Shown: positions 4,539 to 25,600 of the stretch, piece after piece | How the letters are laid out: each line of letters opens with the position of its first letter | How positions within the stretch are numbered: the stretch's first letter is position 1 | Assembly: GCA_031763465.1 (NCBI GenBank) | Contig: JARFOE010000163.1 | Coordinates: 3,244,553 to 3,286,996 of the forward strand | Source of the DNA: Squatina squatina | Taxonomy: Eukaryota | DNA length: 42,444 bases | Direction of reading: 5' to 3' | Program-made: the position numbers and the translations under genes | The notes under the pieces: generated by a model | Told to the model about the DNA's origin: nothing | The model's database searches: none | What the model saw: the letters and a program-made list of their open reading frames with translations, nothing else

Positions 4539-4596
4539 ATGCCATTGAAATCTCAGTTGCTTATTCATGTTCTGTGGGGACAACTCGTAGTTGGTG
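4539..4596 (+). CDS. B7-family (CD276/B7-H3-like) gene, signal peptide exon
   Basis: Acceptor TTTCTTTCTTTCAG at 4512, ATG 4539, MPLKSQLLIHVLWGQLVVG, phase-1 donor G|GTAAGT that joins in frame to the IgV exon. Confidence 0.8.
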
Positions 4597-5039
4597 GTAA
4601 GTCATAACTAACTTCATAATTTCAAGCAATTCGATGTGATGTTGTGCATTTGCTTTTCTGTTACTGTTCAATATTGTACAGAATTAACACTTGATTGTCG
4701 TTATAACTGGCAACTTTCAAATCAGTTTCTTCCGTTTACAGCCAAACAATCCAGGAAGTGGATAGTCCAGTGGGTTAGCACAGGGTGCTAATTATGGCCC
4801 ATTATCCGGCTGGTAACCATTCACAGTGCAGCCCACCGAGCCGAGATAACTCTGTTGGACTGTCATTTACATTTCTTACTTGCAGGTTTACCCTGTTTGA
4901 ACTTTGTGAGCCTGGATGTTTGGGAAGAGTTAGGAATAGTAGTTCTGTGTCATTGGTGAATAAATCCTCACTCAGAACATCAGCAGTATCTGCAGCTAGT
5001 GACTTTTGCAAATTAATGCAAGGAGATACAGAGATCATT

Positions 5040-5195
5040 AACATGTCATGTATAAGTACAGAAAATAATCAAAGGCTTATGGAATGCTGGCCTTTATATC
5101 TGGAGAACCAGAATACAAAGGGGTAGAAGCTATGCTGTACAAAGTTCTGGTTGGACCCCACTTGGAGTGCTGTGAGCCGTTCTGGGCACCACACC
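5040..5195 (+). mobile_element. CR1 LINE ORF2 3' fragment
   Basis: CTGTACAAAGTTCTGGTTGGACCCCACTTGGAGTGCTGTGAGCCGTTCTGGGCACCAC encodes a degenerate LYKxLVRPHLEYCxxFWAP CR1 motif. Confidence 0.7.
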
Positions 5196-5292
5196 TTTCC
5201 ACAGATATTGACTGACTGGCTGAGGATTCGTTTAGTGTTTTCTGTTTTTGTTTCAGATTTCTAACACTTTATTCTTCCTCTTTAATTTACAG

Positions 5293-5640
5293 CTGGATTT
5301 GAAGTCAGAATGGTTAAGGAACCAGTGACAGCTATCCATGGCCAAATTGTTTTGCTGGGATGCAGTTTCACCAGCGAGTCACCCGTGAAGAATCTTATTA
5401 TCACCTGGCAGCGCGTCAAGACTGACGCAGTTGTCCACAGTTATTATTATGGAGAAGACCAGCTCAGCAAGCAGAATCCTCAATATTCAGGCAGAACAAG
5501 TCTATTCCCAGAGGAGTTTCAAAATGGAAATGCTTCACTGAAATTAGAAGGAGTAACACCAGCGGACACTGGACTGTACCTGTGTTATGTCAGTAATACA
5601 ATTGGAAATGATAAAGGAATAGTCTCTGTCAAATTTGCAG
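5293..5640 (+). CDS. B7-family (CD276/B7-H3-like) gene, IgV exon
   Basis: Acceptor TTTACAG, phase 1/1. Encodes LLGCSF...ITWQR...VVHSY...YSGRTSLFPEEFQNGNASLKLEGVTPADTGLYLCYVS, a B7/butyrophilin-type V-set domain with both Cys, the Trp, GNASL and DxGxYxC. Donor CAG|GTAAAT. Confidence 0.93.
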
Positions 5641-6770: not shown

Positions 6771-7058
6771 CATACTACAGTGAGCCAGTGCTGTTGATCA
6801 AACAGGAACTGTCCAGCACCATTTTAATATTTGAGTCCCGAGGCTACCCGAAGGCTGATGTTTCTTGGTACAGTGGAGACAACCGCGATAATTCCCTTTT
6901 GTCCAATTGTTCACACCAGCAAACTGCCAATGGTCTGTACACAGTCCAAAGCACAATGGAACTCAAGGTCACAGAAAGAAGTTCAAACTATACATTCGTG
7001 TTAAGAAATGCTGCTGTGAATCAAACTATCTCCAGGACACTTAGTTTTCTTATTCCAG
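6771..7058 (+). CDS. B7-family (CD276/B7-H3-like) gene, IgC exon (canonical Cys replaced by Phe)
   Basis: Acceptor TTTCGCAG, phase 1/1. AYYSEP...RGYPKADVSW...NGLYTVQSTM...YTFVLRN parallels CD276-type APYSKP...RGYPEAEVFW...GLFDVHSVL...YSCLVRN. Donor CAG|GTAAGA. Confidence 0.9.
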
Positions 7059-7912
7059 GTAAGATTTTGGTTACTTTTTCTCACTGATTTTCTTCCTCTC
7101 CATCTCTCCTGAAGGTACCAGGACACTATCATACTCAGGCAGGTTATTATTTATGTGGGAACATTAATCATGGGTTTTAGCAGGAGGAATATCAATGGTG
7201 ATTCAGAGCTGCACCTGATCCTATTCTCACCTCCTGTCCACAAAGGTGCAGTTTCAGAATGGGTCACTGGTAACCCTAGGGCATTAAGACTGATTGTCAC
7301 ATCTGTACTGCTGTCCCAGCTGTTATCGGCTAACTCAGCATATATTGAACGTAAGACTGCATGACTCAGCTACTCACTGCAAAGACTCACTGAGCCACTG
7401 GAGGAGTTAGACATTCCTTTTTAATAAATGACTGTGTCATAGATTTATTGTTTTAGAAAATTAATCTATACTAAACAAATTCAATTATTGGAAAGCTGAC
7501 AATAAATTCGTCATAGGTCATGTGTAAAGACCATAATTTCAGTGGGCTGTACTCCTGACTACTGTGCGAGTCGAAGATCAGCCTCCAGACTTATTATTGT
7601 CTCAAAATAACTTTGCCTTAAATAGCAAACACATGGTAATTATGCCTATTTTAATACTGATCATCAGTTTGTGTGTATAATTTCTTCATTCTGCTGCCTG
7701 TGAATCTTTCTTTGAATCACTGATTTTACCTGACGGATCCTGATTTAGCAATGAGTCACCTGGTAGCTGAAACAGTTAAACGTTTGACATCCATTGAAAA
7801 ACCACAAGTTTGAAACCCCTGCTTGTCTTTTACACTTGCTGCTTCAGTTGGCTTGGTTTTCCACTAGACGATAAAATGAAACCCGTTTTTTCATTACTTC
7901 TTGCATTTTTAG

Positions 7913-7977
7913 GGTTGGCACCAACAGAAATAAAATCAGGACACATAACGGATGGGATTGTGAGTTCAAGACATTAG
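7913..7977 (+). CDS. Candidate further exon of the B7-like gene (hydrophilic; GLAPTEIKSGHITDGI then donor, or VSSRH*)
   Basis: Pyrimidine tract ending TTTTTAG at 7912, open in phase 1, internal GTGAGT donor at 7960, TAG at 7975-7977. No homology support. Confidence 0.3.
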
Positions 7978-9057
7978 CTCCGTTTCCTCATATCGCATAA
8001 AACAAAGAAAATGGGAAAGAGGCTAAGAAGTACAGTGGGAAGGTCCAAACCCGTTTCATTTTCCCTTGTTAAAGAAATGAAACATCAGTCTAACTTTTGT
8101 CTCTGGAGCAGACCTTAAACCCATGATCTCAGACTCATAGGCTAGAGTGGTACCACTAAGCCAAGTTGACTGTGATGGACTGTATTGTATGATTTTATTT
8201 TAGTTTCTAATTAAGTTTGGCTTTAATGAATTTGTATTTTGTAACATTAAATATGTGGTGCATGGTAGTGGAGCCCTACCCACAGTCCCAGGAAACATTC
8301 TGTGGTACGACAGTTCATGGCCTCAATGTGTAGCTTTTTAAACTGGAGCTTCTCTGAGTGCACAGCACTATCGCCTGGCCTCTCATACCTCTATAGCAGC
8401 CACCAGCATGGTGTATGGTGTGCCAAAGGTCTATTAAGTGCTGCAGAGACAAGAAGAATGGTATCACCTGTCTTAGCAGAACTGCATGTATTAATTACTG
8501 CAAATATGGGTTTGACTTGGATTGAGCTCAGATTCCAAGACACCATTTACTGACCTTATATAGAGAAATGGTTTATTCACCAATGCAGCTAAAAATCATC
8601 TAAAATATCAAAGATGATAAACACAATGTAAATTTTAATAATTCAAGCATTTATTTTGTACATGCAAAATAAAGCGAGATGATGCTTCCCATTGCTAACA
8701 TAGCCCTTTTCATCAGTAACATGCAGAACTACATGATTTTTTTCTCCCCCTTTTACTTTGTCATTTTCTTGATCAAGGAGATATAGCTGGAAATCCTTTT
8801 GTAAACATTTGGCTCTCTCAGACCTTCGTAATCTTTGCCAAAGGAAAGTAATCCTTCAACCTCATTCTTTTTGCAAACCAGCAGCCCAGCAGAATCCCCC
8901 TGGAAAACATACCAGTATTCAACATTAGAAAAAATATGAAATGTGACTACAATAAAAAAACTATGTGGACATCAAAAATAAAATGCTGCTTTGGGACAGC
9001 ACTAATTTATGTTTAAATTCACATTAAAATTTCATATTCCATACAATTTATGAACGC

Positions 9058-9150
9058 TACAGAAAGCAAACATTGCAGATGCTAGAAGTCAGAAACATCT
9101 GGAGAAAACATACAAGTCAACATTTCAGTTGTAGACCCTTTGTCAAGACT
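9058..9150 (+). repeat. Degenerate Penelope-associated short repeat
   Basis: CAGAAAGCAAACATTGCAGATGCTAGAAGTCAGAAA...CATCTGGAGAAA...GTCAACATTTCAG..GACCCTTTGTCA. Related to 32474-32560 (+) and 5195-5262 (-). Confidence 0.5.
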
Positions 9151-9726
9151 GGAAAATATTAGAGGAACTGCATTTAAAAAGGAACAGAACAAAGTGAAAG
9201 GGGAGGGAAAAACACACGAGGAAGTAGGATGTCCTGGCTTAAAAGTCACGCATGATATTAAGAGACAACAGGAGACATGAAGAGAGAAATTAAAGACATT
9301 TACAAGACATAGAACATGTAACTAGCCAAGACTGAGGGGTGAGGCAAGAGAAACAAGAGAAAACTGGCTTGAAGTTGNNNNNNNNNNNNNNNNNNNNNNN
9401 NNNNNNNNNNNNNNNNNNNNNNNNNNNNNNNNNNNNNNNNNNNNNNNNNNNNNNNNNNNNNNNNNNNNNNNNNNNNNAAGCAACTGAATGAACAAAAGAT
9501 CAAGGAATGAAGCATTATAGTAAGGTTTGCTGTGGTGTCCAATCTTAAGAGTCAGATTCTTCGAGAGAACTAACCCAATAAAATAAATGAAATTTCACAA
9601 GCACATTATTTCAGAAGTGTTTTGAATGAACAGTCAACGTAAACTGCCCACGAGAGTAAAAGGAGTTACCTCAAATCTAGGACTATATCCACATTTGCAC
9701 TTAGCCATGTGCTGTTTTCATCTCAG

Positions 9727-9785
9727 GTTTCATTGAAGAAGGCACAGCACTTCGTTCTCCATGGCCATTTCTTTCCAAATGCTAG
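9727..9785 (+). CDS. Candidate terminal exon of the B7-like gene (GFIEEGTALRSPWPFLSKC*)
   Basis: Acceptor CTGTTTTCATCTCAG|G, stop in phase 1 at 9783-9785, AATAAA at 9893-9898. No homology support. Confidence 0.3.
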
Positions 9786-10869
9786 CAAAGATCCTTAGAA
9801 GTTGTGAAGTGTTATAAAAATCTTTAATGGACTTGAACACCTTTCTGAACAGACGTTTGCACTAAATTTAGCTGTGTCCAATTTTTTCTTTTAATAAAAA
9901 ATTATTTTACAGCAACAGAGACAATTTATTTTTGAACTGTTTGTAACCTTTACTCTGATGTTTCGGATATCTGAACTCCAAAAAGAGATTATAGACCATC
10001 CAGCTGCTGGTACTAATTTTATCACTTCACTGATACAACTGCAAGTTTCGGAATAGAAATGTTCCATTTTGTTATCAATTACTCCTCATGTCATCAAAGT
10101 CATTACAAAGCTACCAGTTTTTGAGAAACATGAAAAGGCAACGAGGAGTTTTTTTTATAATGAAGTTTCAGACAACAGATAGCCTTTTGATATCTGGCAC
10201 TAAATAAAGATTCTTTTCAAAGTAATTGCGGCAATGATACAGAGAAAACTTCCACTTCAAAATTTGCCTTTTTGCACAAATGAAGTGATAAGAGTTCGCA
10301 CTAAAATGATAAGATGGTTAAATGCATTAAAAATGGCTGATCTAAAATAAAAGCCGAGGACAGATTCAAGGCCAACCTAAGGAACTATTTCAAAGAAGCA
10401 CCATAGTTGGCAATGACCTCAGACATGCCAACCACATGAGAAAACGAGTAGTACTGATTTTTACTTGTACTCCTACAACTGTTGCAAAGGGACAGTTGAG
10501 ATTTCAGTTTAGATCAATTGGTTAATACTGTACTACAGTACTTTATATAGTATACTACAATCATGACAATGCAGTGTATCTGGAACAACTTTTTGCCACA
10601 GGCTGCTTGATGCTAAGCTGGCAATTTGTTCACATCACTTAGTTGTCAAGGTATGTGGGGCATCAACTGCAGTGGCTATACATCTACAACTGAAAGCAAT
10701 ACAAGTCTTCACTACTGGCTCAAGAGTCATTTCCTAATACCCCCTAATTAGTTTATAAAATTACCTTTCTCCAACTGCTTTTACCATTACAGTTTAATTA
10801 CAATTAATCCCCACCTCTATCCTTTCTACTATATCTCATCCCACAAGAATCCAACTACAGGAAGATCAG

Positions 10870-12032
10870 GGTTATGAGTCAGGTATTTCTTTTAATGAGG
10901 CTTCGTGAAGCCTGTTTCAGTACAAAAAGGTCAACTCTAAACCACTTGAACATACAACACAAAGAAAGCCATTTCCAAATATTTCTCATCCAATACATGT
11001 CAGCTTATAAAGATACATTGCTCAGAACTTCATTTGTAAATTTTGAAGAATTTGGAACATGATTAACTAGTTATTTACAGTGTACAGAACTCTTGAAACT
11101 ACTGAAAGATGCACAAATGTCCAATTACAAGTTAAAAATGAAGCCTTTTATCTTTAGCAGTATCAAGGTGGTTTGTGAGGCAGAGAATATCTTCTGTTCC
11201 CATGTTGCTTCCCTACCTTGCTACACTAAAGGAACGTTTCAAATGACATTTTTTTTTTACAAGAATAAGTGGCTATGAAAGCCTTTATTTTAAAATAAAG
11301 ACCACAGCTTGTTCAGCTTCTATAAAACATCAGTTTGCTTAGCATAAAAATAGATTGAGAACACACTATTAAACCCCTTTTACACATGTTTGTTTTCACC
11401 AGAATTCCAGTCAACCCCACAACTTCAATTCAGAATCAGAAATAGCTAGACATTATGGGAAGGATTGAAGCATTTGAGCAATGTTAAGACAAAAACAAAG
11501 AAACAGAGAGGCAGAGAGACACAGAGACAGAGAAACGGAGACAATGAGAGAGACACACAGAGACAGAAAAACAGAGAAAGAGACACAGACACACAGAGAG
11601 AGAAACAGAGAGACAAAAAAAGAGACACACAGAGACANNNNNNNNNNNNNNNNNNNNNNNNNNNNNNNNNNNNNNNNNNNNNNNNNNNNNNNNNNNNNNN
11701 NNNNNNNNNNNNNNNNNNNNNNNNNNNNNNNNNNNNNAAAGAAACAGATCTAAAGTAAGAAGAAAACCTCAAAACGTTACTAAAAAAATAAAAGAGGGCT
11801 CTGCTAAGTGCCTGAGAATGCTTAAGATTGCTTGATTGTTTAATTCTAAAATTACTGAGCCAACACTTAGTGTGCATCCTCATGTCAGAAGCTGTCAGGC
11901 TGTGATTAACAAGGCCAAACTGAATTACTACAAGTCAGTGAGAATACAAGTACACAATACGATTCCACGAAGCTCCGAAAATCTTTATAAATACAGCCAT
12001 AGGAAGGACGATCTTGAGTCAGGAAGATTTAT
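10870..12032 (-). other. CIRBP: CIRBP 3'UTR with ATTAAA poly(A) signal at 10896-10891
   Basis: Follows the ATHNE stop codon. Blocks CTTCCTGACTCAAGATCGTCCTTCCTATGGCTG, GAAGCTGAACAAGCTGTGG and GGCTTCACGAAGCCTCATTAAAAG resemble the mammalian CIRBP 3'UTR as recalled. Confidence 0.7.
11487..11750. repeat. Compound (AG/AC/AGAC)n microsatellite spanning an N-gap
   Basis: Directly visible AGAGAC/ACAGAG low-complexity tract. Confidence 0.9.
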
Positions 12033-12049
12033 TTATTCGTTGTGAGTAG
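12033..12049 (-). CDS. CIRBP: CIRBP last coding exon (ATHNE*)
   Basis: Acceptor CTTCTTGTTCTCAG then CT ACT CAC AAC GAA TAA in phase 1, the same as the human CIRBP C-terminus ATHNE. Confidence 0.88.
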
Positions 12050-13841
12050 CTGAGAACAAGAAGCAGGTACAATGTAAAAAGACTGCAACAGTAATCATAG
12101 CTTCCTCTTCCTACTGTTAGATCAGTGGTATGGACTGACTTGATCATGGTTTAGAGCTACTGGGGTATGGTGGATCATCATCTGAAGCATCACATAACAT
12201 TGAATGTTATGCCATCTGCATTCCCATCTCATACTGAATGTATTATGGGAATACAGCAGNNNNNNNNNNNNNNNNNNNNNNNNNNNNNNNNNNNNNNNNN
12301 NNNNNNNNNNNNNNTCGTCAATGGTTCAAAAATTTAGAATACACTGCTGCTTTCTTGTTTTGGTTCAAGGTAGTATACATATATAAATTGATTTATAAAA
12401 GGAGTGGACAAATCCAGTCAGCTATCCAAATGACTGCTGAAAAGTTGGACATGCAGAACAAGAGCTAAAAGTATACTAGCTCAAGGTTTAAATGCAAAAA
12501 AAAAATGCATTAAACTATGGCACTTTATATTTGACTTCAAAGTTTGTACTCCACTTCTCAATATTGCACCGCTGCAGTTAACTTATAGAACTAGTAGCGG
12601 GGATCAAGCACCGTGGTGTAGCACACCAAGAACCTGTTCTTTCCGCCTGGACCCAACAGAACTGCAAGGCCAGAACCTACCATCAGTAGAACTTTCCACC
12701 CCCAGAGATGCACTGTTGACTGGTACTACAGGAAGAATCAACGTTGCATTCTACTGAGCTTTGAGGACTTTCATTATTCAGGTTACGGTTAAGTAACTCA
12801 AACCCTTTGTGGACAGCGTTGACATGCAGATACACTGCTTATTGGCCATTCACATTATATAATAATTTTATCAAGTCAACTAGATCTTTTCAGAAGATTA
12901 TAGTTACCCCAACCCGATAGTTTTCACTTGATTTCCATTTTTAATGGCACACGAGCAGAAGCCAGACGTTGTCGTCAGTTTCACAGAGTAATGATGGCGA
13001 ATGCGGAGTTTTGCCGTCATTACAACCCCAAATCACGGGCCAGTCAACCTCTGTGCTAAGCTTATAAATGCAATCATATCTGTGATTAGAAAGAGGCCAG
13101 CAGTATGGATGAACCAGTCAAAGACTCAAGCAATGCACTGGTGAGTGTACAGTGTAGATTTTCTCAAACATTAAATGATNNNNNNNNNNNNNNNNNNNNN
13201 NNNNNNNNNNNNNNNNNNNNNNNNNNNNNNNNNNNNNNNNNNNNNNNNNNNNNNNNNNNNNNNNNNNNNNNNNNNNNNNNNNNNNNNNNNNNNNNNNNNN
13301 NNNNNNNNNNNNNNNNNNNNNNNNNNNNNNNNNNNNNNNNNNNNNNNNNNNNNNNNNNNNNNNNNNNNNNNNNNNNNNNNNNNNNNNNNNNNNNNNNNNN
13401 NNNNNNNNNNNNNNNNNNNNNNNNNNNNNNNNNNNNNNNNNNNNNNNNNNNNNNNNNNNNNNNNNNNNNNNNNNNNNNNNNNNNNNNNNNNNNNNNNNNN
13501 NNNNNNNNNNNNNNNNNNNNNNNNNNNNNNNNNNNNNNNNNNNNNNNNNNNNNNNNNNNNNNNNNNNNNNGTGTGAATACAATCACATGGACAAAGGTGC
13601 ATCAATAATCAAATCAAACCACATGAAATGGGCCCACCTTGGAAGACTCCAGTGGCCAAAAGGTCCTGCCTACAAGTTAAAGTGATTTTAATACTGCTAT
13701 ACCACTTTCTCCAGTCATTTCAGTGTTCAATGTAATAAAGGGACCAACGGCAGTCTAGAGAATCGATCTGCTTAACCTCCACCGTCTCGGGACACTAAAG
13801 TGGATAAAATTCTTTTGAACTATATTAGTAAAGTTGCATAC

Positions 13842-13983
13842 CTCTAGAAAACCCACGTGCTCTACGTCCAGACCCACCACGGAAAAATCCACGGCTGCTT
13901 GCATTTCCACCCCTGTAGCCTCGGGATCGGTCCCCAGAGGATTTGCCAGCTTGATCCACCCTAATCTGACGCCCATCAATAGA
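13842..13983 (-). CDS. CIRBP: CIRBP exon 4, module B (end of RRM plus RGG region)
   Basis: Acceptor TTTTTCTCCAATTCTAG, phase 0/1, 142 nt. [47 protein letters not shown](G), donor G|GTATGC. Close to human [26 protein letters not shown]...RGFFRGG...RGFSRG. Confidence 0.92.
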
Positions 13984-14039
13984 CTAGAATTGGAGAAAAA
14001 CATCGAATAGTTATTGGTTATCAAATGGCTTTGTTTTAG

Positions 14040-14265
14040 AATATAAAGAACCTTCATTTATATAGCGTTTTCTATAATCTATAAACATCCCAACATGCTT
14101 TACATGGAAACATTGGAACAGGAGTAGGACATTCAGCCCCTAGAACCTATCCCACCAATCAATTAAGTCATGGCTGATCTTGATTTTTTCTTATAGTCAC
14201 TTTTATAATGTAGGGAAACGACATATTAACAACTTGCATTTATCCAGTGCCTTAATGTAAAACAC
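14040..14265. mobile_element. Nested SINE tail and CR1/HE1-type 3' end fragments
   Basis: AAAGAACCTTCATTTATATAGCG and AACTTGCATTTAT (reverse SINE tails), plus GGAACAGGAGTAGGACATTCAGCCCC...TCATGGCTGATCT. Confidence 0.55.
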
Positions 14266-17200
14266 NNNNNNNNNNNNNNNNNNNNNNNNNNNNNNNNNNN
14301 NNNNNNNNNNNNNNNNNNNNNNNNNNNNNNNNNNNNNNNNNNNNNNNNNNNNNNNNNNNNNNNNNCATCAGCTACACAAAAGGGAATACAATGCTATAAC
14401 TGCAGAAAACATCAGTATTCAACAACATGCTAGTAAATTAAATACAAGGAAAATACAGAATTTGAGCCATTGCTTGTGGTATGCCGGGCCCCAGACTGAA
14501 ATCTGGGGACCTCGCGAACCCCAGTTTGGAAACCTATGCTGTATAATATTGGAAATAACTTGTGTTACGTACAGGAACTTGAATATTTAATAAAATTGCT
14601 CGAAAAGACACAAATTCCTCTCCCTGTCCCACTTAACAGTACAGTTGACCATAGCATCCATATTGCTGAGTTTGGCAAGTTAAGATCCAGGATATGAAGT
14701 GGATACTTATGATCTGTTTCATATCAAGAGTCCTCCATTGATCTTTTCACCCAATGGCAACAAGTCAACTTGATCTGGGTGCATTCACAAACAGGGGAAC
14801 TTTATATTGCGATGTACATTCAAGAGACCCCAGGAGGAAATCCACTAGTTTATTCCAAGCACATCACCAGAACATTTAAAACGGATCAGCTTAAAGAAAT
14901 GGGAAGGTGGACATTGTACGAGATCAAAATGAGTTACCTCAAGGCTATGATTATATCCATTGATGCATTAGTCATAACCAGTTGAAGTTTCTTTGCAGGA
15001 GGAACACGTCATTCTTCAATGCCACTACTTTCACCAAAGCTAGCAAAAATCTTGATATTGTAAAGTATATGAAAATCTTTTTGACAGGTAATATGGGCTG
15101 TTATCTTAATTCATGTAAATGTTGCAAAATATTAAAAGGATAAAATAACTAACAAGGAAGTACTTTCAGATAAGATAGTCTGAAGAAGTTTTACTTAAAT
15201 GCCTGATGAAATAGGTTTTTTGGGTATTGGGCCGCCCCCCGGCGGGCCGAACCGGACGAAAATGGAACAACTTGCATTCCACAGAACTAGAATTGCATCA
15301 GGTTTTTTTTTTTTAAATATTACCTTTGGGGCTAGAATAGTAATTTAAAATCATTGATCTCATTCTATCTACAACCTGAATTCTAGGATGCCGACTTGTT
15401 ACTTGGGCTCCTTTAGGGACTGGTGTCGCAGAATTTCCTTGAACAGCTATGCAAAATTAGTCTAGCATGTTTTGATCTGAGCAAGCTAGCTTTACCAATA
15501 GAAACATGCAGTTTTAATCCGCTATGCTTATTCATTTAGTTATCCACAAAAAAAAAACAGGATTATTCACACCTCAAGTAGGATTGAAGCGAATTAAATT
15601 CAGGCAAGTAATTAAAAAAGGTATGGGGAGGATAGGACATAGGTTACCATGGTTGCATACAGCCAGTAGGTCATCCCCCTATATATGACAGCACTTACTA
15701 CAAATCAAAATAACTCATTCGTGACTTTTCAAAAATGGTCTAAAGATACATCAGCNNNNNNNNNNNNNNNNNNNNNNNNNNNNNNNNNNNNNNNNNNNNN
15801 NNNNNNNNNNNNNNNNNNNNNNNNNNNNNNNNNNNNNNNNNNNNNNNNNNNNNNNTTTTCAGCATATTAAAAAAGAGAAACTGGCTTGCTGAGCTTGGGG
15901 GGGAAAGAGAAGAGAAGAGACAGTAAGGGAAGTCTGGAGAAAGGTGGAAATCATTGGAACAAATGAACAATTAGATCAATGTTAATTCATCTCCCCTGCA
16001 TAACTGGATTCCAACTTTACCCCAACCCAATTTGGTTCCAACTGTCCCCACTGTTTAAAAATATGATATTCAGTGACTTCAAATGTAGAAGACTTTATAG
16101 AACAGATAGAATGTTCATTTCACTTGCACCATTAAACCCATTTTAAAGGATGATGCACTACAGCTTACCCAACAAATAAGAGTTAAAACATTTATATTGC
16201 TTCTAAAAGCATTATATAGAAAGCAAGCTGTGAAACAATGCAATTCTGCTTTTAGAAACCTCCATATACACAGCACTTTAAAAAAAATTGTGCCAGTAAG
16301 TTATTACATAGCATGTGGATTTACTTAAATTATAGGTCAAATAGAAAACGGAGTTCTTACTGCATAAGTACAGCATTTAGAATTATAAAAAGGTAAAGGA
16401 CCCAATAATCAGAATGTCACATGTATTAAAATCTCAACATCCAATTTCAGTCACTACATTTTATCCAAATTGGATGAACTTCAGTTAACAGGGTTCACTA
16501 TAACACTTATGGTTGATTAAAGGCAACAAGAGATCTTTGGGCAAGGTTCTTTAATCAGTTTCCAAAAAGCCAAGTTTATACAAAAAAAAAGTGTTTCATC
16601 CTTGTGCATGAAATACAGCATGAACAAATGGCCAACTTTACCAGTATATAATTTTCCAAAAACAAGCCTCCTATATTAGATTAAAAATGAATGCATTTTT
16701 TTGTAAATTGTATCTTAACAGGCTTTATGCAAATACTCAAGACCCAGCAGATTTGAACATTCCACTGCAAGGTAATTTTCAATGACAGGCAGAACGACTG
16801 AATGTTGATTTACCATCAGGAAAGTAATTGGTGTTATCATTGCATTTCATCAAATAAGCGTGAAAAGGTCAATACAGCATTGCAGCACACGCAGCTTTTA
16901 ACAAATATCTGAGTGCTGCATTCAAACATGGCAGCGCTGGTGTCAAATCTGTGTTGCACACTGACTGATGTCATAAACTACCTGTTCTGCATGCTGCCAG
17001 CGATCGTTGGGTGCACGCACGCAAACTCCTGTACCAAAATGGCGTCTGATGCACTTGCCATCAGAAGGGTGTGCGCACATCCAGGACTCAATTTTTGACC
17101 ATTAGTGCCTTAAGAATGGGCACAACAGAGCAGAATTTTGCAGTCAGTGTTTTATTAATTTTTCATTTCTCTGTCCCCGCTGCTTAAATAAAAAAAATGA

Positions 17201-19457
17201 TGGATATATGAAGACCCAAGTGGTATAATTTATATTCCACAAGTGGGTTAACCTATGAACTGAAGNNNNNNNNNNNNNNNNNNNNNNNNNNNNNNNNNNN
17301 NNNNNNNNNNNNNNNNNNNNNNNNNNNNNNNNNNNNNNNNNNNNNNNNNNNNNNNNNNNNNNNNNNNNNNNNNNNNNNNNNNNNNNNNNNNNNNNNNNNN
17401 NNNNNNNNNNNNNNNNNNNNNNNNNNNNNNNNNNNNNNNNNNNNNNNNNNNNNNNNNNNNNNNNNNNNNNNNNNNNNNNNNNNNNNNNNNNNNNNNNNNN
17501 NNNNNNNNNNNNNNNNNNNNNNNNNNNNNNNNNNNNNNNNNNNNNNNNNNNNNNNNNNNNNNNNNNNNNNNNNNNNNNNNNNNNNNNNNNNNNNNNNNNN
17601 NNNNNNNNNNNNNNNNNNNNNNNNNNNNNNNNNNNNNNNNNNNNNNNNNNNNNNNNNNNNNNNNNNNNNNNNNNNNNNNNNNNNNNNNNNNNNNNNNNNN
17701 NNNNNNNNNNNNNNNNNNNNNNNNNNNNNNNNNNNNNNNNNNNNNNNNNNNNNNNNNNNNNNNNNNNNNNNNNNNNNNNNNNNNNNNNNNNNNNNNNNNN
17801 NNNNNNNNNNNNNNNNNNNNNNNNNNNNNNNNNNNNNNNNNNNNNNNNNNNNNNNNNNNNNNNNNNNNNNNNNNNNNNNNNNNNNNNNNNNNNNNNNNNN
17901 NNNNNNNNNNNNNNNNNNNNNNNNNNNNNNNNNNNNNNNNNNNNNNNNNNNNNNNNNNNNNNNNNNNNNNNNNNNNNNNNNNNNNNNNNNNNNNNNNNNN
18001 NNNNNNNNNNNNNNNNNNNNNNNNNNNNNNNNNNNNNNNNNNNNNNNNNNNNNNNNAATTTCATGTGAATTTGAAGCTGACTGGATACAATTTTCTCAGC
18101 TTGTGTAATTTGGGTTACAAACATTTGCAGAAAAAAAACTCCAGAAAACAATACTTGAAGATAACCAGTGTTTTTCTGCAAACATACATGGCAAACAGGA
18201 GCACTCCATTTATCCAGCTGTTACTTAGGGTAGAAGACAACTGATAAAGGGAAATTTAGCACAGTAAGCTCCCGATTATCCAATCTAGTTTTTAAGACTT
18301 TACATTTTGAATCTTAAATAAATCTGTTGAGCTAATAAGCGGTCACATAATTACAGTCCGAGAGCACATTTTATTGAAAACATGAGATTAATAGTGGAAT
18401 TTTATAAACATTTGTCTCTTCCATGTAACTGCAGTTTTGGAAAAGAAATTTAAGTATTACTGTAGCATCCTAAATTATAAAAATAAACATCTAAAATACA
18501 AATTAAAACAAGTGCAACTATTTCTGCTCACCCCATCAGAATTCCCACCTCTTCTTTCCACTCAGTTTTTTTCATCTAATCCATTGTAGCCTTTTAGAAA
18601 TTGTATAGTTGCCCTTTCTGCTGGCTTCCACTTCCAGTTTAGAGGAAGGAATACATTTCAAAAACTTGTTTGTGCAGGGGGAGGGGTTGAATAACAGTTT
18701 TCAGCTACTTGAATCTCCAAGTCTTAAAAATTGACAATTGTGGCAGTTGAATTTCCAATGAGTAAAAAATATTACCCATAAGTGGCTCTGCTAAATTAAT
18801 AGAGTAATCTTACAGGTTAGCTCCTTCCCAAAATAAACACTGCCAAACAGGCATGGTTAGTATATCTCAATTCAATACTGAATTTTTGCAACATGTACCA
18901 TTGTAATTATTAAGTCCATTGATATAAAAGGTATACATTAAACTTCATACCAAGGCATTATTATTGCAGTGAAAACCCAGTATTAGGAAATGATGAAAAG
19001 AAACTTGAAAGGAATATACAGCTCCAGTTATCCCATTTACCCCAGGTGAGATTTTAAGAAAGCTTGAACTTCACAAAGCAGTATGTAATATTTTCACATT
19101 AAGTTGAATCTCATCCTTACATTGGCACTAATTTCTTGATTGGATGGGAAATTTCATTGTCCCAACAAGATGAGGCTCTTAAGGAGAACTACGGACCTTT
19201 TTAGTTACAAGATTAATGACGAAGTTATGTGGCTGCAACTACAATTTTAAGCTTAATGATACCCAGTCTTAAATTGCAAATTGCACTGAAAGCTTACACA
19301 AACACCCTTTAATAGCTTAGCTGACCATTTTGTCATCTCACATTTACTTCAATGAGATTTTTCACTTCATTGTAAGTATTCAAATGTTTACAACAGGTGA
19401 CAACATACTAGAACTCGAAATTAGCCCATATTTCCAGCGGTTTATACACGTACTTAC

Positions 19458-19531
19458 CATAACTATCATAGTCATCCCGGTAGGACCTCCCAGTTGAACT
19501 GCTGTAGCCATAACTGCTAGAATTTTGACTC
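19458..19531 (-). CDS. CIRBP: CIRBP-like module A exon 6 (RSY region)
   Basis: Acceptor TTTTTTTTAATTGTAG, 74 nt, phase 2/1. (R)SQNSSSYGYSSSTGRSYRDDYDSY, donor G|GTAAGT. Parallels human RSQ...SYRDSYDSY. Confidence 0.9.
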
Positions 19532-19607
19532 CTACAATTAAAAAAATTGTATTTACCATGTGCAATATAAAGTAGACTTAGTGATAGACAAAAATGCAAA
19601 CATTTAC

Positions 19608-19656
19608 CTATTATTATAGTCACTTCTGTAATTGCTTCGTCCACTTCTGTCACCAT
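19608..19656 (-). CDS. CIRBP: CIRBP-like module A exon 5
   Basis: Acceptor CTCTTCCAATAG, 49 nt, phase 1/2. DGDRSGRSNYRSDYNN, donor AG|GTAAAT. Keeps frame between exons 4 and 6. Confidence 0.85.
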
Positions 19657-20327
19657 CTATTGGAAGAGTGAGCAATTTTTGTTGGAGGGTGGGAACAGAA
19701 AAGGGAGAAAGTTAACATTTACAGATATTGTACTTTAAGATTTGCCTACTATATAAAATCAAATCAATTTTATTAAGTTGAATTAAAATTGTGGATAGAA
19801 CCATACATTAAGCTCTGACATGTTGCTGAATGCCATCAACCTCCCAGGCATTCTGTACAGCATTGCATTCAATGCTAGCACCCACTTTCTATTCAAGGAA
19901 GTTTTTAATTGTCTGATATTGGCAAGGCAATATTTATTACCCACCCCTAGTTACCCTAAGGGCATTGAGTCAACCATGTCATGTAGAACTGAAGTCCAAG
20001 CAAGGTAGTAGTGTATTACACCTAAAAAACACATTCAGATGGGTTTTTACAATAATCCTGCAGCATTCATGGAAATCTTTTCTGGTGCATGTCCGCAAAC
20101 TACCAGATTTATTTATTTCAATTTCACAAATTGCCACGGTGGGATCTGAACTTGTGCCCTCTGGTTTGCTTGCCCAGTAACATAAGCAATAGGCNNNNNN
20201 NNNNNNNNNNNNNNNNNNNNNNNNNNNNNNNNNNNNNNNNNNNNNNNNNNNNNNNNNNNNNNNNNNNNNNNNNNNNNNNNNNNNNNNNNNNNNNCAAATC
20301 AGACTATGTTCCACCATTATAGATCAC

Positions 20328-20460
20328 CTCTGTAAGATCCACGGCTGCTTCTCCCACCACGGAATCCATAGCCTCGTGATTGTCCACTTTGGTAATTCCG
20401 AGATCGTCCCCCAGAGCCTTTTCCTGCCTGGTCTACTCGAATTTGCCGACCATCAAGTGA
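20328..20460 (-). CDS. CIRBP: CIRBP-like module A exon 4
   Basis: Acceptor CTTGACACTTCAG, 133 nt, phase 0/1. [44 protein letters not shown], donor G|GTGATC. Confidence 0.92.
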
Positions 20461-20787
20461 CTGAAGTGTCAAGAGAAATAAAGCTGATGAATTACCATAG
20501 TGAAACAGTATTGATAGTATAAACTGAGTACAATCACCACACTATCATTTTGATTTTGTCAAAGTTTAGAATTTAAAATTAACTTTTGTTTCATTCGAGT
20601 AATCTGTTATTAGATGCAGGTGAGGAGTTGGGTGGAAAAGAAATAAAATCTGGAAACATCAAGCTAACCAAGTGGGAGATAGTTAGTCCATTAATCTAAT
20701 TTACTTACTGGCTGAAAATTTAAAATATTCAAGTACATTGCATCTGAAGAGATGCCGACCACCTAACCTTTAAAAGACCCTCATCTA

Positions 20788-20988
<201 letters not shown>

Positions 20989-21229
20989 TTAGCATATAGT
21001 ATTTGTTGGTGGGTATTACTCGTGAGCTGGCTTTTAAAAGAAAGTATACAATTAAAAAGGATTTCTGTGCCCCAAACACTGTCTGTGGACTTGAGGATCG
21101 ATGATTCCACATCAGGAACCTTTTCCTATATCAAGTAAACCTGCTAGCCTTCAACAGGAGCACAAGATTTACCAAGATTTAAGCCAGACATCATTCATTA
21201 CTCTGGCCATTTGCTCAAGCTGAACCACA

Positions 21230-21700
21230 CATGAAGCCTTGGTGCCACATTTGATCGAGCTATGCTTCAAACCCACATCGCATTTCTAACGTCACCCATC
21301 ACCGTACCCCTATTTGTAGTTTCTTCAATGCCCTCCTTTTCAGCATGCCATCCACCACAAATTTCAAGTTGCTAAAAATTCAACTGCACATATCCTAAAC
21401 CTTGCTCACCCACTACTCCCATCCTCACAAACCTATATTTGGCTGTATGTGCCACAACGCATTAAATTTGAAACAGTCCTCAAATCCCTACATGACCTCA
21501 TCCCAACCTATCTCAGTCTTATTTTCCCTCCCGTACTTTGCGTATCCTTCCCATCCTTTTGTCCGAATACCATGAGATACTTCAGTCACCTCAGTTCGAA
21601 TTTCAAGTTCCTTTCTGCCTCTCCACTCCAAAGAAAACCCTTTGCAAAGCCTTACTTTTCCATCATGATTTCAGTTATCTCTCCTAAGGCAATATGATTC
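21230..21700 (+). mobile_element. L2-type LINE ORF2 3' fragment (degraded)
   Basis: Degenerate TPIL..L.WL.V..RIKF...KSLHDL.P.YL, characteristic of the L2 ORF2 C-terminus. Confidence 0.6.
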
Positions 21701-22505
21701 AGCAATTGCTCCCCAATTCCTTTGATCTATTCTTTCCTCTCTCCTCCCCCACCCCAAAAAACAGCACCCTAGATTGTTTTCTACATTGACAGTGCAGTAT
21801 AAATGCAGTAATAGCCAGTTGCTATTTTTCAGTGGTGTTGGTTGAAGTAAGAATTCAGTCCAGAGTACTCAATGCTTTGTTTCATAGGGCTTTGAACATC
21901 CACAANNNNNNNNNNNNNNNNNNNNNNNNNNNNNNNNNNNNNNNNNNNNNNNNNNNNNNNNNNNNNNNNNNNNNNNNNNNNNNNNNNNNNNNNNNNNNNN
22001 NNNNNNNNNNNNNNNNNNNNNNNNNNNNNNNNNNNNNNNNNNNNNNNNNNNNNNNNNNNNNNNNNNNNNNNNNNNNNNNNNNNNNNNNNNNNNNNNNNNN
22101 NNNNNNNNNNNNNNNNNNNNNNNNNNNNNNNNNNNNNNNNNNNNNNNNNNNNNNNNNNNNNNNNNNNNNNNNNNNNNNNNNNNNNNNNNNNNNNNNNNNN
22201 NNNNNNNNNNNNNNNNNNNNNNNNNNNNNNNNNNNNNNNNNNNNNNNNNNNNNNNNNNNNNNNNNNNNNNNNNNNNNNNNNNNNNNNNNNNNNNNNNNNN
22301 NNNATGGAGAACAGTAAATGCCAGAGACAGTTTGTTCAGTCTCCTTTCCTGGTTGTCATCTCCTGCAGCACCCTATTTCAGTTAATATACCAAACACCAT
22401 CAGCCAGTAAAGCATATTTGGGACAGGCCTGTCAGTTTTTTCTTTTTAGTAAGAGAATGGCCACATTAAAATTGCTCAAAATAAACATACACATCAGGAC
22501 CTTAC

Positions 22506-22605
22506 CATCACGAACTTCTCCATACTTGGAAAATAATTGCTCCAGTGATTGCTCATCTGTGTCAAAGTTGAGCCCACCAACAAAAAGTTTTCCTTCATCA
22601 GACAT
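22506..22605 (-). CDS. CIRBP: CIRBP-like exon 2 (start codon, RRM RNP2)
   Basis: Acceptor TTCTCTCCCAG before 22613, Kozak [39 protein letters not shown], donor G|GTAAG. The non-coding exon 1 is not visible and may lie in gap 23603-23701. Confidence 0.95.
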
Positions 22606-25600
22606 GGTGTTTTCTGGGAGAGAACATAAACCAATCCAGACTATAATAATATATTTACAATCTCAATGAAAAAAATTACATTTTGCAAGAACCTGTGAAA
22701 ATTAGATTGGTTTGTTCCCTGCACATCTAACTTGGAACAAGCCTTTTTTTTTTTTAAAAAGTCCATTCAGCTTAAAAGTAGCACATCACATGTATTTAAA
22801 TTTTCGCTGATAAATTCTGAAAACCGACTAAAATGGTCAATCCATGTCTCAACTCCTGCAATAACAGAAGACACTACTACCTTACACAGGCATACTGAAA
22901 GGCCTACTTCAATCCATTACTTGCCAACTACATGGTTAATAATTTTAGTATGGCTGCAGGAAAATTACTACTTTTGAACTTGCCCACCCTGTGGCATTGG
23001 CACTCAAGAGTCAAGAACTTTCCTAAGAATGGGGAAATGAACAAGCAAGACAGTTCATACATACTTTTGTGGGGCATGATAAAATGTCATTGACCAACAA
23101 GCAGGGCCTCATTTTCAAGGCCCCAATGTTTTACTGATATAAAAGATAAAAAAGAGATTTTTTTTTTGTAAGGAGGTAAATGACAATTAAAACACACAGA
23201 GATTTTAAGACTAAGTTTACAGATTTTGACTTAAAATATATAATTTTAAACTAGTTGGGGCAGGGTCAAACAACTAAGGTGCCGGGACATAATCCACATT
23301 TTTATTAAAAGTTAATAAGATCTATAAGGTTTCTGAAAATATTATGGGATCACATCTCAGTATTTGTTTAAACAGCTTTATTTAGTTAAAATTAAAACCT
23401 ACATCTCCTTTAGAAGGGCAAGGAAAATTGTACACCACTGTTTATAAGTTAATACCACACTTCCTTGATTCTTCATTTTGCGCTACTTATGATTAAAATC
23501 GGTTGTGTTTAGCGTGGAAGTTATATCTATACTTCACTAAAAAGTCACTGAAATTGTCACCTGAACAGTCAATATTAAGGAATGAAGGAGACACACACAT
23601 ANNNNNNNNNNNNNNNNNNNNNNNNNNNNNNNNNNNNNNNNNNNNNNNNNNNNNNNNNNNNNNNNNNNNNNNNNNNNNNNNNNNNNNNNNNNNNNNNNNN
23701 NCTACGTTTAGCGGGCCTCGGAATGGATTACCTTTCCTGTCAGGTGACCAAGCTGAGATTGGCAAACTTGCCTTCCAGAGGAGACAAAATGATGAATAAC
23801 AGCCAAGAAACCAACGGAACGTTAAAGATAATAATACAAATTAAAGTTCTTAACAACTACAAATGATCCATTTGACCTTTTACTAATGACTGTGACTTAT
23901 TTTGTGCAGGCAGTGACTGAAGCAAAATAGCTTATCTCACTTGACAACGACGTTAGCAATGTTTCAGTCAGTATGAGTTTCACAGTCGAGTGGAAGAAAT
24001 CCTTCTACAAAAAGGACTTTGTGAGTCCAAAATTCTTACAGCTGCCACAAGTGGATGTTGGAAAGTTGGGGCGAAAAGTTACCTCAGGTGTATATGTAAA
24101 ATTTCAAAACTAAAGAGGCCTCCATGGGAGTGGCTCAATGAGCTGAAGAGGGTAGCAAGAGAGTATGGCCCATAGTAAATGTTTGTGAAGCAGTAATAAT
24201 GGTGGAGTTGTGATGCCCCAAACAGTATCGGNNNNNNNNNNCTGTTGCAGGCACAGGGGATGGCTAAACACAAGCGTGAGTTGTGAAGAGCACATAAAAA
24301 TACACGCGTAATGTTCATAGTTCACTTTTATCTGCACTTCATGAACTTCTGGACGAAAACGTATCTCAACCTGAAGAAAAGAAACCTCCTGAGATGGTAG
24401 AGTGCACAGATATGAACCATACTTCTATGTCGACACACATGATTCCTCAGGAAAAAGGCACTGTTGTCAATTTTAGGAAGAGGATGAAGATAAGATAAAG
24501 AAATAGAGGAAGAGTAGGGNNNNNNNNNNNNNNNNNNNNNNNNNNNNNNNNNNNNNNNNNNNNNNNNNNNNNNNNNNNNNNNNNNNNNNNNNNNNNNNNN
24601 NNNNNNNNNNNNNNNNNNNTGCAGTGTGGGTGGTTTGGAGATGCTATCAATTGCAGATGATGTTTGCTGTTTTCTCAAAAATATGCACAAAAGACCAAGG
24701 CCAGTTGCAAAGTAAATCACAGCTCCACTTATAGCGACAGTTAAATTATAACTTTGCTCAACTTAATCTAAACCTTCTTGTTGGAGATTGCTTTGCTCCT
24801 TCATTTCCAGTCTGGCGTGACAAGTAATATGTTTCGTTTTTTTTTCTCTTCGCCACAAAGTAATGCAAATTTAAGTGATGTAATTATGGTGCACATATTA
24901 CCAGATATCTCAGGCACAAGGCTTAACTCATGGCTTGTGGGATACATAAATCAGCCTTGGTCCAAAGTGGTTTGATCCTAATTGAAACCAGTACTATTCT
25001 GCAGTAAAATTAGTTTGTGGAAGAGATAAAGCTATTTCCCTCTGATTTATATTTTCCCTCCAGATTTTCCATTTCCCCCCCTCCTCTAGGGCACCCCTAC
25101 CACATAGCTGCCTTCATCTAGAATAGTAGATGAGCAAGTCATGGCCTTCCTCGTAAGTTTGGCACACAGGGCAGACATACTCAACTTGCATTTACAGGTT
25201 AACACAGATGCACTGAGTCATATTTCCATTCCCTGAGGCAAAACAGATGTTTCACGGTCATGATTCACGCTGCCTATTGGTCTTGATGCGAAATGAAGAC
25301 AATAGCTGGAAACATGGGTGGCATGAATCACATGTGTGCATCTATCTAATCAAATCATGGGNNNNNNNNNNNNNNNNNNNNNNNNNNNNNNNNNNNNNNN
25401 NNNNNNNNNNNNNNNNNNNNNNNNNNNNNNNNNNNNNNNNNNNNNNNNNNNNNNNNNNNNNCTGGTTGCGGTCATCCCTATCACAACATGTTCATGCAAA
25501 CTTAAGTGAAATTACAAGAATAAGGCAGTTACTAGAATGTGCTTCATCCATCAGAGAGCCCTTTGCAGCCAAATAGCTTCCTTTATTCTTTAGTGCAGTA

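Follow-up and report, generated by a model that had tools for sequence, protein, structure and literature searches.

The window analysed here, 42,444 nucleotides of the Squatina squatina genome (contig JARFOE010000163.1, positions 3,244,553 to 3,286,996, forward strand), carries the leader, IgV and IgC exons of what is very likely an intact B7-like gene, complete with a transmembrane exon on a separate contig, of an old jawed-vertebrate lineage without the IgC disulfide; a normal fold is predicted for the IgC domain, with Phe75 and Phe20 likely resting on Trp32. Judged from the aligned sequences, the missing IgC cysteines characterise an old B7-like lineage as a whole and are no peculiarity of one gene.

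The window gene and its IgC domain

The exons of the gene located in the window are as follows.

4539..4596, plus strand: leader (signal peptide) exon, coding part (tblastn with the sawshark protein P0001, 74% over 19 residues)
5293..5640, plus strand: IgV exon, both canonical cysteines present (Pfam V-set, E 1e-15; translation)
6771..7058, plus strand: IgC exon without the B- and F-strand cysteines (AG acceptor, GT donor, phase 1/1)

The leader exon is directly followed by a GTAAGT donor, as read from the sequence, and its join to the IgV exon (4595 to 5293) is seen in public-run contigs of relatives (X4 and X16; runs presumed to be RNA), as is the IgV–IgC join, with GT..AG borders, in a relative's contig (run X16, likewise presumed RNA). 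The frame of the IgC exon is open from 6773 for 95 codons, and its match to Pfam C2-set_2 (CD80-like; E 1.2e-6, 28.9 bits, cut-off 21) and that of the preceding exon to V-set both exceed the Pfam cut-offs, giving the IgV-then-IgC order of B7 proteins in the broad sense.

The residues of interest in the IgC domain, numbered from its start, are these.

6830..6832 (TTT), plus strand: Phe20, at the B-strand Cys position (HMMER alignment)
6866..6868 (TGG), plus strand: Trp32, the tryptophan of the Ig core, identical in all rows of alignment A2
6908..6910 (TGT), plus strand: Cys46, inside the sequon N45-C46-S47 on predicted strand D, not conserved
6995..6997 (TTC), plus strand: Phe75, at the F-strand Cys position (HMMER alignment)

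HMMER aligns Phe75 to the F-strand Cys of both CD276 and PD-L2, and Phe20 to the B-strand Cys of PD-L2. The gapless alignment with CD276 places Ile19, rather than Phe20, at the B-strand Cys, because CD276 has one extra residue before GYP; neither residue is a Cys. The canonical IgC B–F disulfide, which is typical of B7 members without being a strict criterion for them, is absent (F20/F75). Cys46 is the only cysteine in the domain, which has additional sequons at N72 and N83.

A sequence-only reading of this exon had reported phenylalanine at both cysteine positions, within an otherwise intact fold and frame; sequence and HMMER alignments bear out the residues and their coordinates, and the open exon, the retained Trp32 and the C2-set_2 match above cut-off agree with the remainder. 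The closest orthologue, P0001, is 82% identical, full-length and has the same F/F pair, and a sevengill shark protein matches the window gene at 77%, values that point to a cartilaginous fish. All seven complete relatives among the eight matches of the first search are F/F, and the pair is conserved throughout the shark/ray clade, in 14/14 proteins assigned to it (nine by tree, five by similarity). Sequencing error and decay are ruled out as causes of the substitution because F/F is present in all 14 orthologues; the earlier reading had held the loss unlikely to be random decay. Its remark that each Phe codon is one G>T change from Cys is true but uninformative, both Phe codons being single-base neighbours of Cys codons; such proximity gives no evidence of route, and two G>T changes as the origin of the pair are unsupported.

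In a catshark isoform record, P0008, the N-terminal half of the C domain is absent, and with it strand B and the core Trp, which reflects either alternative splicing or an annotation artefact.

The cysteine-less lineage and its history

Cys-less relatives, most of them auto-named 'CD276 antigen-like' in databases, were found in chimaera, sharks, rays, bichir, sturgeon, teleosts, lungfish, coelacanth and turtles. They were gathered by a representative search (78 matches) and a profile search (88 matches), and the residue tally was made on 82 proteins, i.e. the best 65 of the 88 profile rows and 17 hand-picked from the representative search; three proteins without a C domain, three incomplete ones and one that failed the pattern (V/F by eye) were dropped, leaving 77 domains from 75 proteins. 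None of the 77 has a B- or F-strand cysteine, though this count is in part circular and comes from a set chosen to some extent for the trait: the profile was built on Cys-less proteins, 17 of the 82 were chosen by eye and near-copies were counted. Phe occupies the F position of 68 domains and Val that of the other nine. At the B position there are 41 Phe, 15 Leu, 11 Val, eight Tyr and one each of Met and Ile, with F/F in 41 of the 77. Since the B position varies in this way, strict Phe–Phe pairing is not required, only the F-strand Phe being near-constant. The 23 lower profile rows belong to butyrophilins and to proteins of the HHLA2 type, and all ten of them for which a C domain was displayed have the cysteines.

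The same genome has two further Cys-less C exons, L002 (L/V) and L003 (A/F), and also carries cysteine-bearing CD276-like and PD-L1-like C exons. L003, together with L050 of this genome, represents a third Cys-less paralogue (Ala/Phe) on an outer branch, grouping with the sevengill shark protein P0068. In the sevengill shark three paralogues are apparently on one contig, the fourth, P0068, being on another. The L/V paralogue clade comprises the following.

L002:97-414, minus strand (own genome); P0016, P0089, P0102, P0106, P0107, P0115-P0118, P0121: members of the L/V clade

Two new cysteines are conserved in the members checked (10/10), one located two residues past the core Trp and the other just before strand F; a substitute disulfide formed by this pair is plausible.

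In the first V+C tree a single branch (94/85) separates the 42 Cys-less rows from the rest, and CD276 and PD-L1 are adjacent; the lineage groups with these two at 95/83 and 97/91 in the V+C trees. The V-only tree, which is free of the trait, recovers a starred core of 27 rows that includes the window gene (98/98), but resolves none of the outer branches, which comprise one clade of sharks, a single lungfish gene, coelacanth and turtles. Sequence, fold and tree all place the window gene with B7 proteins, the trees having been built without ICOSL, B7-H6, confirmed CD80/86 and confirmed VTCN1. The VTCN1 comparison, made with two sequences only, has the V exon L054 of this genome, which we take to be VTCN1-like, and P0142, a coelacanth protein named VTCN1, both outside the core clade in the V-only tree. 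For the core clade, a single loss, which would predate the split of sharks and bony fish, is well supported.

The outer branches are complicated by a turtle paralogue with both cysteines, which came from a third search (45 new rows, 31 with a C domain) as ten complete rows.

P0184, P0187, P0192, P0193, P0196, P0198, P0199, P0201-P0203: turtle C/C proteins

Because this paralogue nests in the wider lineage, the outer branches may not go back to one loss. The C/C rows lie among Cys-less rows in the V+C tree (100/99 within turtles), and in a C-only tree from which the B and F columns were dropped they group with coelacanth and other turtle paralogues (95/90). The free C-only tree implies two changes, a loss and a regain, as against about five or six losses. 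Moving the turtle C/C rows outside every Cys-less row costs only 5.5 log units, and the AU test does not reject that tree (p 0.235). Retention of the cysteines by a sister gene, their regain and their repeated loss are thus all viable; regain of the cysteines in the turtle paralogue is possible, and gene conversion may be another origin of the C/C state.

An unlikely explanation of the lineage as a whole is that the cysteines were lost repeatedly and independently, the ancestor having had them, the turtle C/C proteins preserving that condition, and convergence accounting in part for the Phe on strand F. The nested position of the turtle rows and the single base separating Phe from Cys are as such a history would have them; against it are the five or six losses it needs on the free tree, the recurrence of Phe on strand F across most branches, and the failure of the AU test to reject a tree that unites all Cys-less rows.

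The cystine site, Cys46 and the last exon

The claim of the earlier reading that an aromatic pair replaces the disulfide holds in part: the substitutes are hydrophobic and mostly aromatic in the orthologues, and the model of the window domain has a pLDDT of 89.9, though AlphaFold would yield an Ig fold by homology for a stable or an unstable domain alike. What does not hold is a strict, gene-specific and symmetric Cys>Phe exchange, since the loss is lineage-wide and the B position varies. We propose instead that Phe75 and Phe20 pack on Trp32 at the cystine site, that the F-strand change from Cys to Phe would go back at least to the ancestor of the core clade (sharks, chimaera, lungfish and ray-finned fish), and that strand B may tolerate any bulky hydrophobic residue. 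By analogy with the family, the IgV domain would bind a co-signalling receptor of lymphocytes, most probably a CD28-family member, and the role of the IgC domain would be that of a spacer or a dimer surface.

The free cysteine had also been thought able to form an interchain bond. The residue at position 46 is, however, Cys in only four of the 14 orthologues, the others having Tyr (4), Ser (3), Thr (2) or His (1), while stray cysteines occur at six positions (16, 23, 46, 49, 55 and 91); the sequon of this region is present in 6/14, and P0001 has Ser46 and no Cys anywhere in the domain. Given the rarity of Cys46, the patchy sequon and the Cys-free domain of P0001, a conserved interchain bond is unlikely, and Cys46 likely plays no part. 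It is probably a neutral variant whose side chain faces inward while its two sequon neighbours face outward, and the protein would accordingly be a monomer or a non-covalent dimer. That a strict Phe–Phe pair replaces the disulfide and Cys46 makes a covalent dimer is therefore, we think, very improbable, even though F/F is the commonest pair and fixed in the clade, and Cys46, common to four sharks, sits on an edge strand: besides the distribution just given, other members of the lineage are V/F, L/V, Y/F or L/F, Cys46 aligns to the Thr of the PD-L2 N-T-S sequon, and a glycan on N45 would likely shield it.

A transmembrane exon was sought in the window and not found. It is present, with the tail, on L057, a separate 669-base contig of the same genome (G000) located by searching that genome with an orthologue's tail (E 4e-13); the last exon there is intact and encodes a run of hydrophobic residues and a tail, short and basic, of ~20 residues that ends in a stop. 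The two contigs share an intron stretch.

7352..7486, plus strand: intron sequence matching bases 1-137 of L057 (95.6% identity)

About six of the 137 bases differ. Past 7486 the window diverges from L057 without an N gap, reflecting either an assembly collapse or a haplotype without the transmembrane exon. The leader exon, the transmembrane exon on L057, outside the window, and the orthologue model together give a type I layout, and most likely the gene encodes a complete type I membrane protein and was broken up during assembly, a possible alternative being another haplotype from which the transmembrane exon has been deleted. It is scarcely credible that sequencing error, pseudogenisation or truncation to a secreted allele explains the window copy: the exon missing from the window and the few differences to L057, which may reflect another haplotype or a collapsed assembly, would fit, but the frames are open with canonical splice sites, the full-length orthologue is 82% identical and has the same F/F, the last exon is intact on the overlapping contig, and spliced leader–V–C contigs occur in relatives.

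Neighbourhood, related families and wider meaning

In this genome, from which alone synteny was taken, the gene sits between POLRMT and an FGF gene upstream, which we take to be FGF22, and CIRBP and midnolin downstream; an upstream exon without a database match is presumably RNF126-like. Downstream, a trypsin-like last exon (8756-8900, minus strand; Pfam Trypsin, E 3.8e-5) reads GDSAG, the usual trypsin motif being GDSGG, and a motif scan of 7059-19500 found no other exons of such a gene. Exons of CIRBP (cold-inducible RNA-binding protein) lie at about 19400-22660, minus strand, with midnolin beyond. Between the two is an ATP synthase alpha/beta family exon (Pfam ATP-synt_ab; L035:4645-4959, minus strand), which we take to be V-ATPase B-like; we presume that no such exon lies between CIRBP and midnolin in human. 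The human 19p13.3 neighbours are, we presume, POLRMT, FGF22, RNF126, CIRBP and MIDN, with no B7 gene among them. In the part of PMC11599192 consulted, 19p13 is described as a major MHC-paralogous region, and B7 genes are located in MHC paralogons.

CD276 (B7-H3) resembles the window gene in its IgV–IgC–transmembrane layout and gives the best match to it both in Foldseek and, for the IgV and the IgC domain alike, among PDB sequences; it differs in keeping the IgC cysteines and in its longer A–B loop. An orthologue of CD276 was rejected as an identity, the window domains grouping elsewhere and lacking the IgC cysteines and the long loop; the separate CD276 of this genome (L006, L052) groups with sturgeon and badger CD276 (100/99 in the C-only tree, 100/94 in the V-only tree). 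PD-L1 and PD-L2 share the short C-x3-G-Y-P register of strand B, and the strand-D sequon of PD-L2 (N-T-S) matches that of the window gene, with Cys46 at its Thr, but both retain the two IgC cysteines; PD-L1 and CD276 are jointly sister to the Cys-less lineage in the V+C trees. Orthology to PD-L1 or PD-L2 was likewise rejected, that place in the trees being taken by a separate PD-L1-like gene of this genome, L005. BTN2/BTN3 and CD80, at 15-22% identity, keep the cysteines. Shark butyrophilins have a B30.2 tail (PF00622), whereas the window gene ends in its short tail without B30.2 and is grouped elsewhere by trees, so a butyrophilin was discarded also.

Ig domains without a disulfide are exemplified by domain 1 of CD2 and CD58, the N domains of CEACAMs and domain 3 of CD4, and like the window IgC domain these have hydrophobic replacements, their sandwich being stable without the B–F cystine. 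As such domains are known in principle, the observation on one gene would alone be modest. Those domains, however, are V-type and from other families; in the window gene the bond is missing from a B7 protein's constant domain, the one next to the membrane, while the V domain keeps it.

No description of a cysteine-free B7 IgC lineage was found in the parts searched of the literature, including PMC12151841, PMC11599192, PMC6795676, PMC11926128 and PMC13262535, supplements lying outside the search; the word 'cysteine' is absent from the main text of PMC13262535. Novelty is provisional, as Hansen 2009, Flajnik 2012 or supplements may already name these genes. B7 surveys treat them as additional 'CD276-like' copies. 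The common structural signature and the well-supported core clade would set them apart as a separate old B7 lineage, and such a lineage would account for part of the B7 paralogue expansion in turtles and Cladistia (bichirs) that section 10 of PMC13262535, in the part consulted, presents as unexplained.

A broader reading, doubtful but worth stating, is that the gene is an unrecognised ancestral B7 paralogue of an MHC-paralogous, 19p13-like block, lost in mammals, whose disulfide was lost once before the shark/bony fish split and whose covalent stabilisation was rebuilt twice, by the new Cys pair in a shark/ray clade and by the canonical B–F pair in the turtle paralogue. Extra CD28-family receptors are reported from cartilaginous and early-branching fish in the portion of PMC11599192 consulted, and the lineage supplies candidate ligands for them; if the broader reading is true, it would be the natural candidate ligand for orphan receptors of the CD28 family in sharks and early-branching fish. 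The members of the lineage, with F/F, Y/F, L/V plus a new Cys pair, and C/C, form a natural series with which to test how a constant Ig domain manages without its disulfide.
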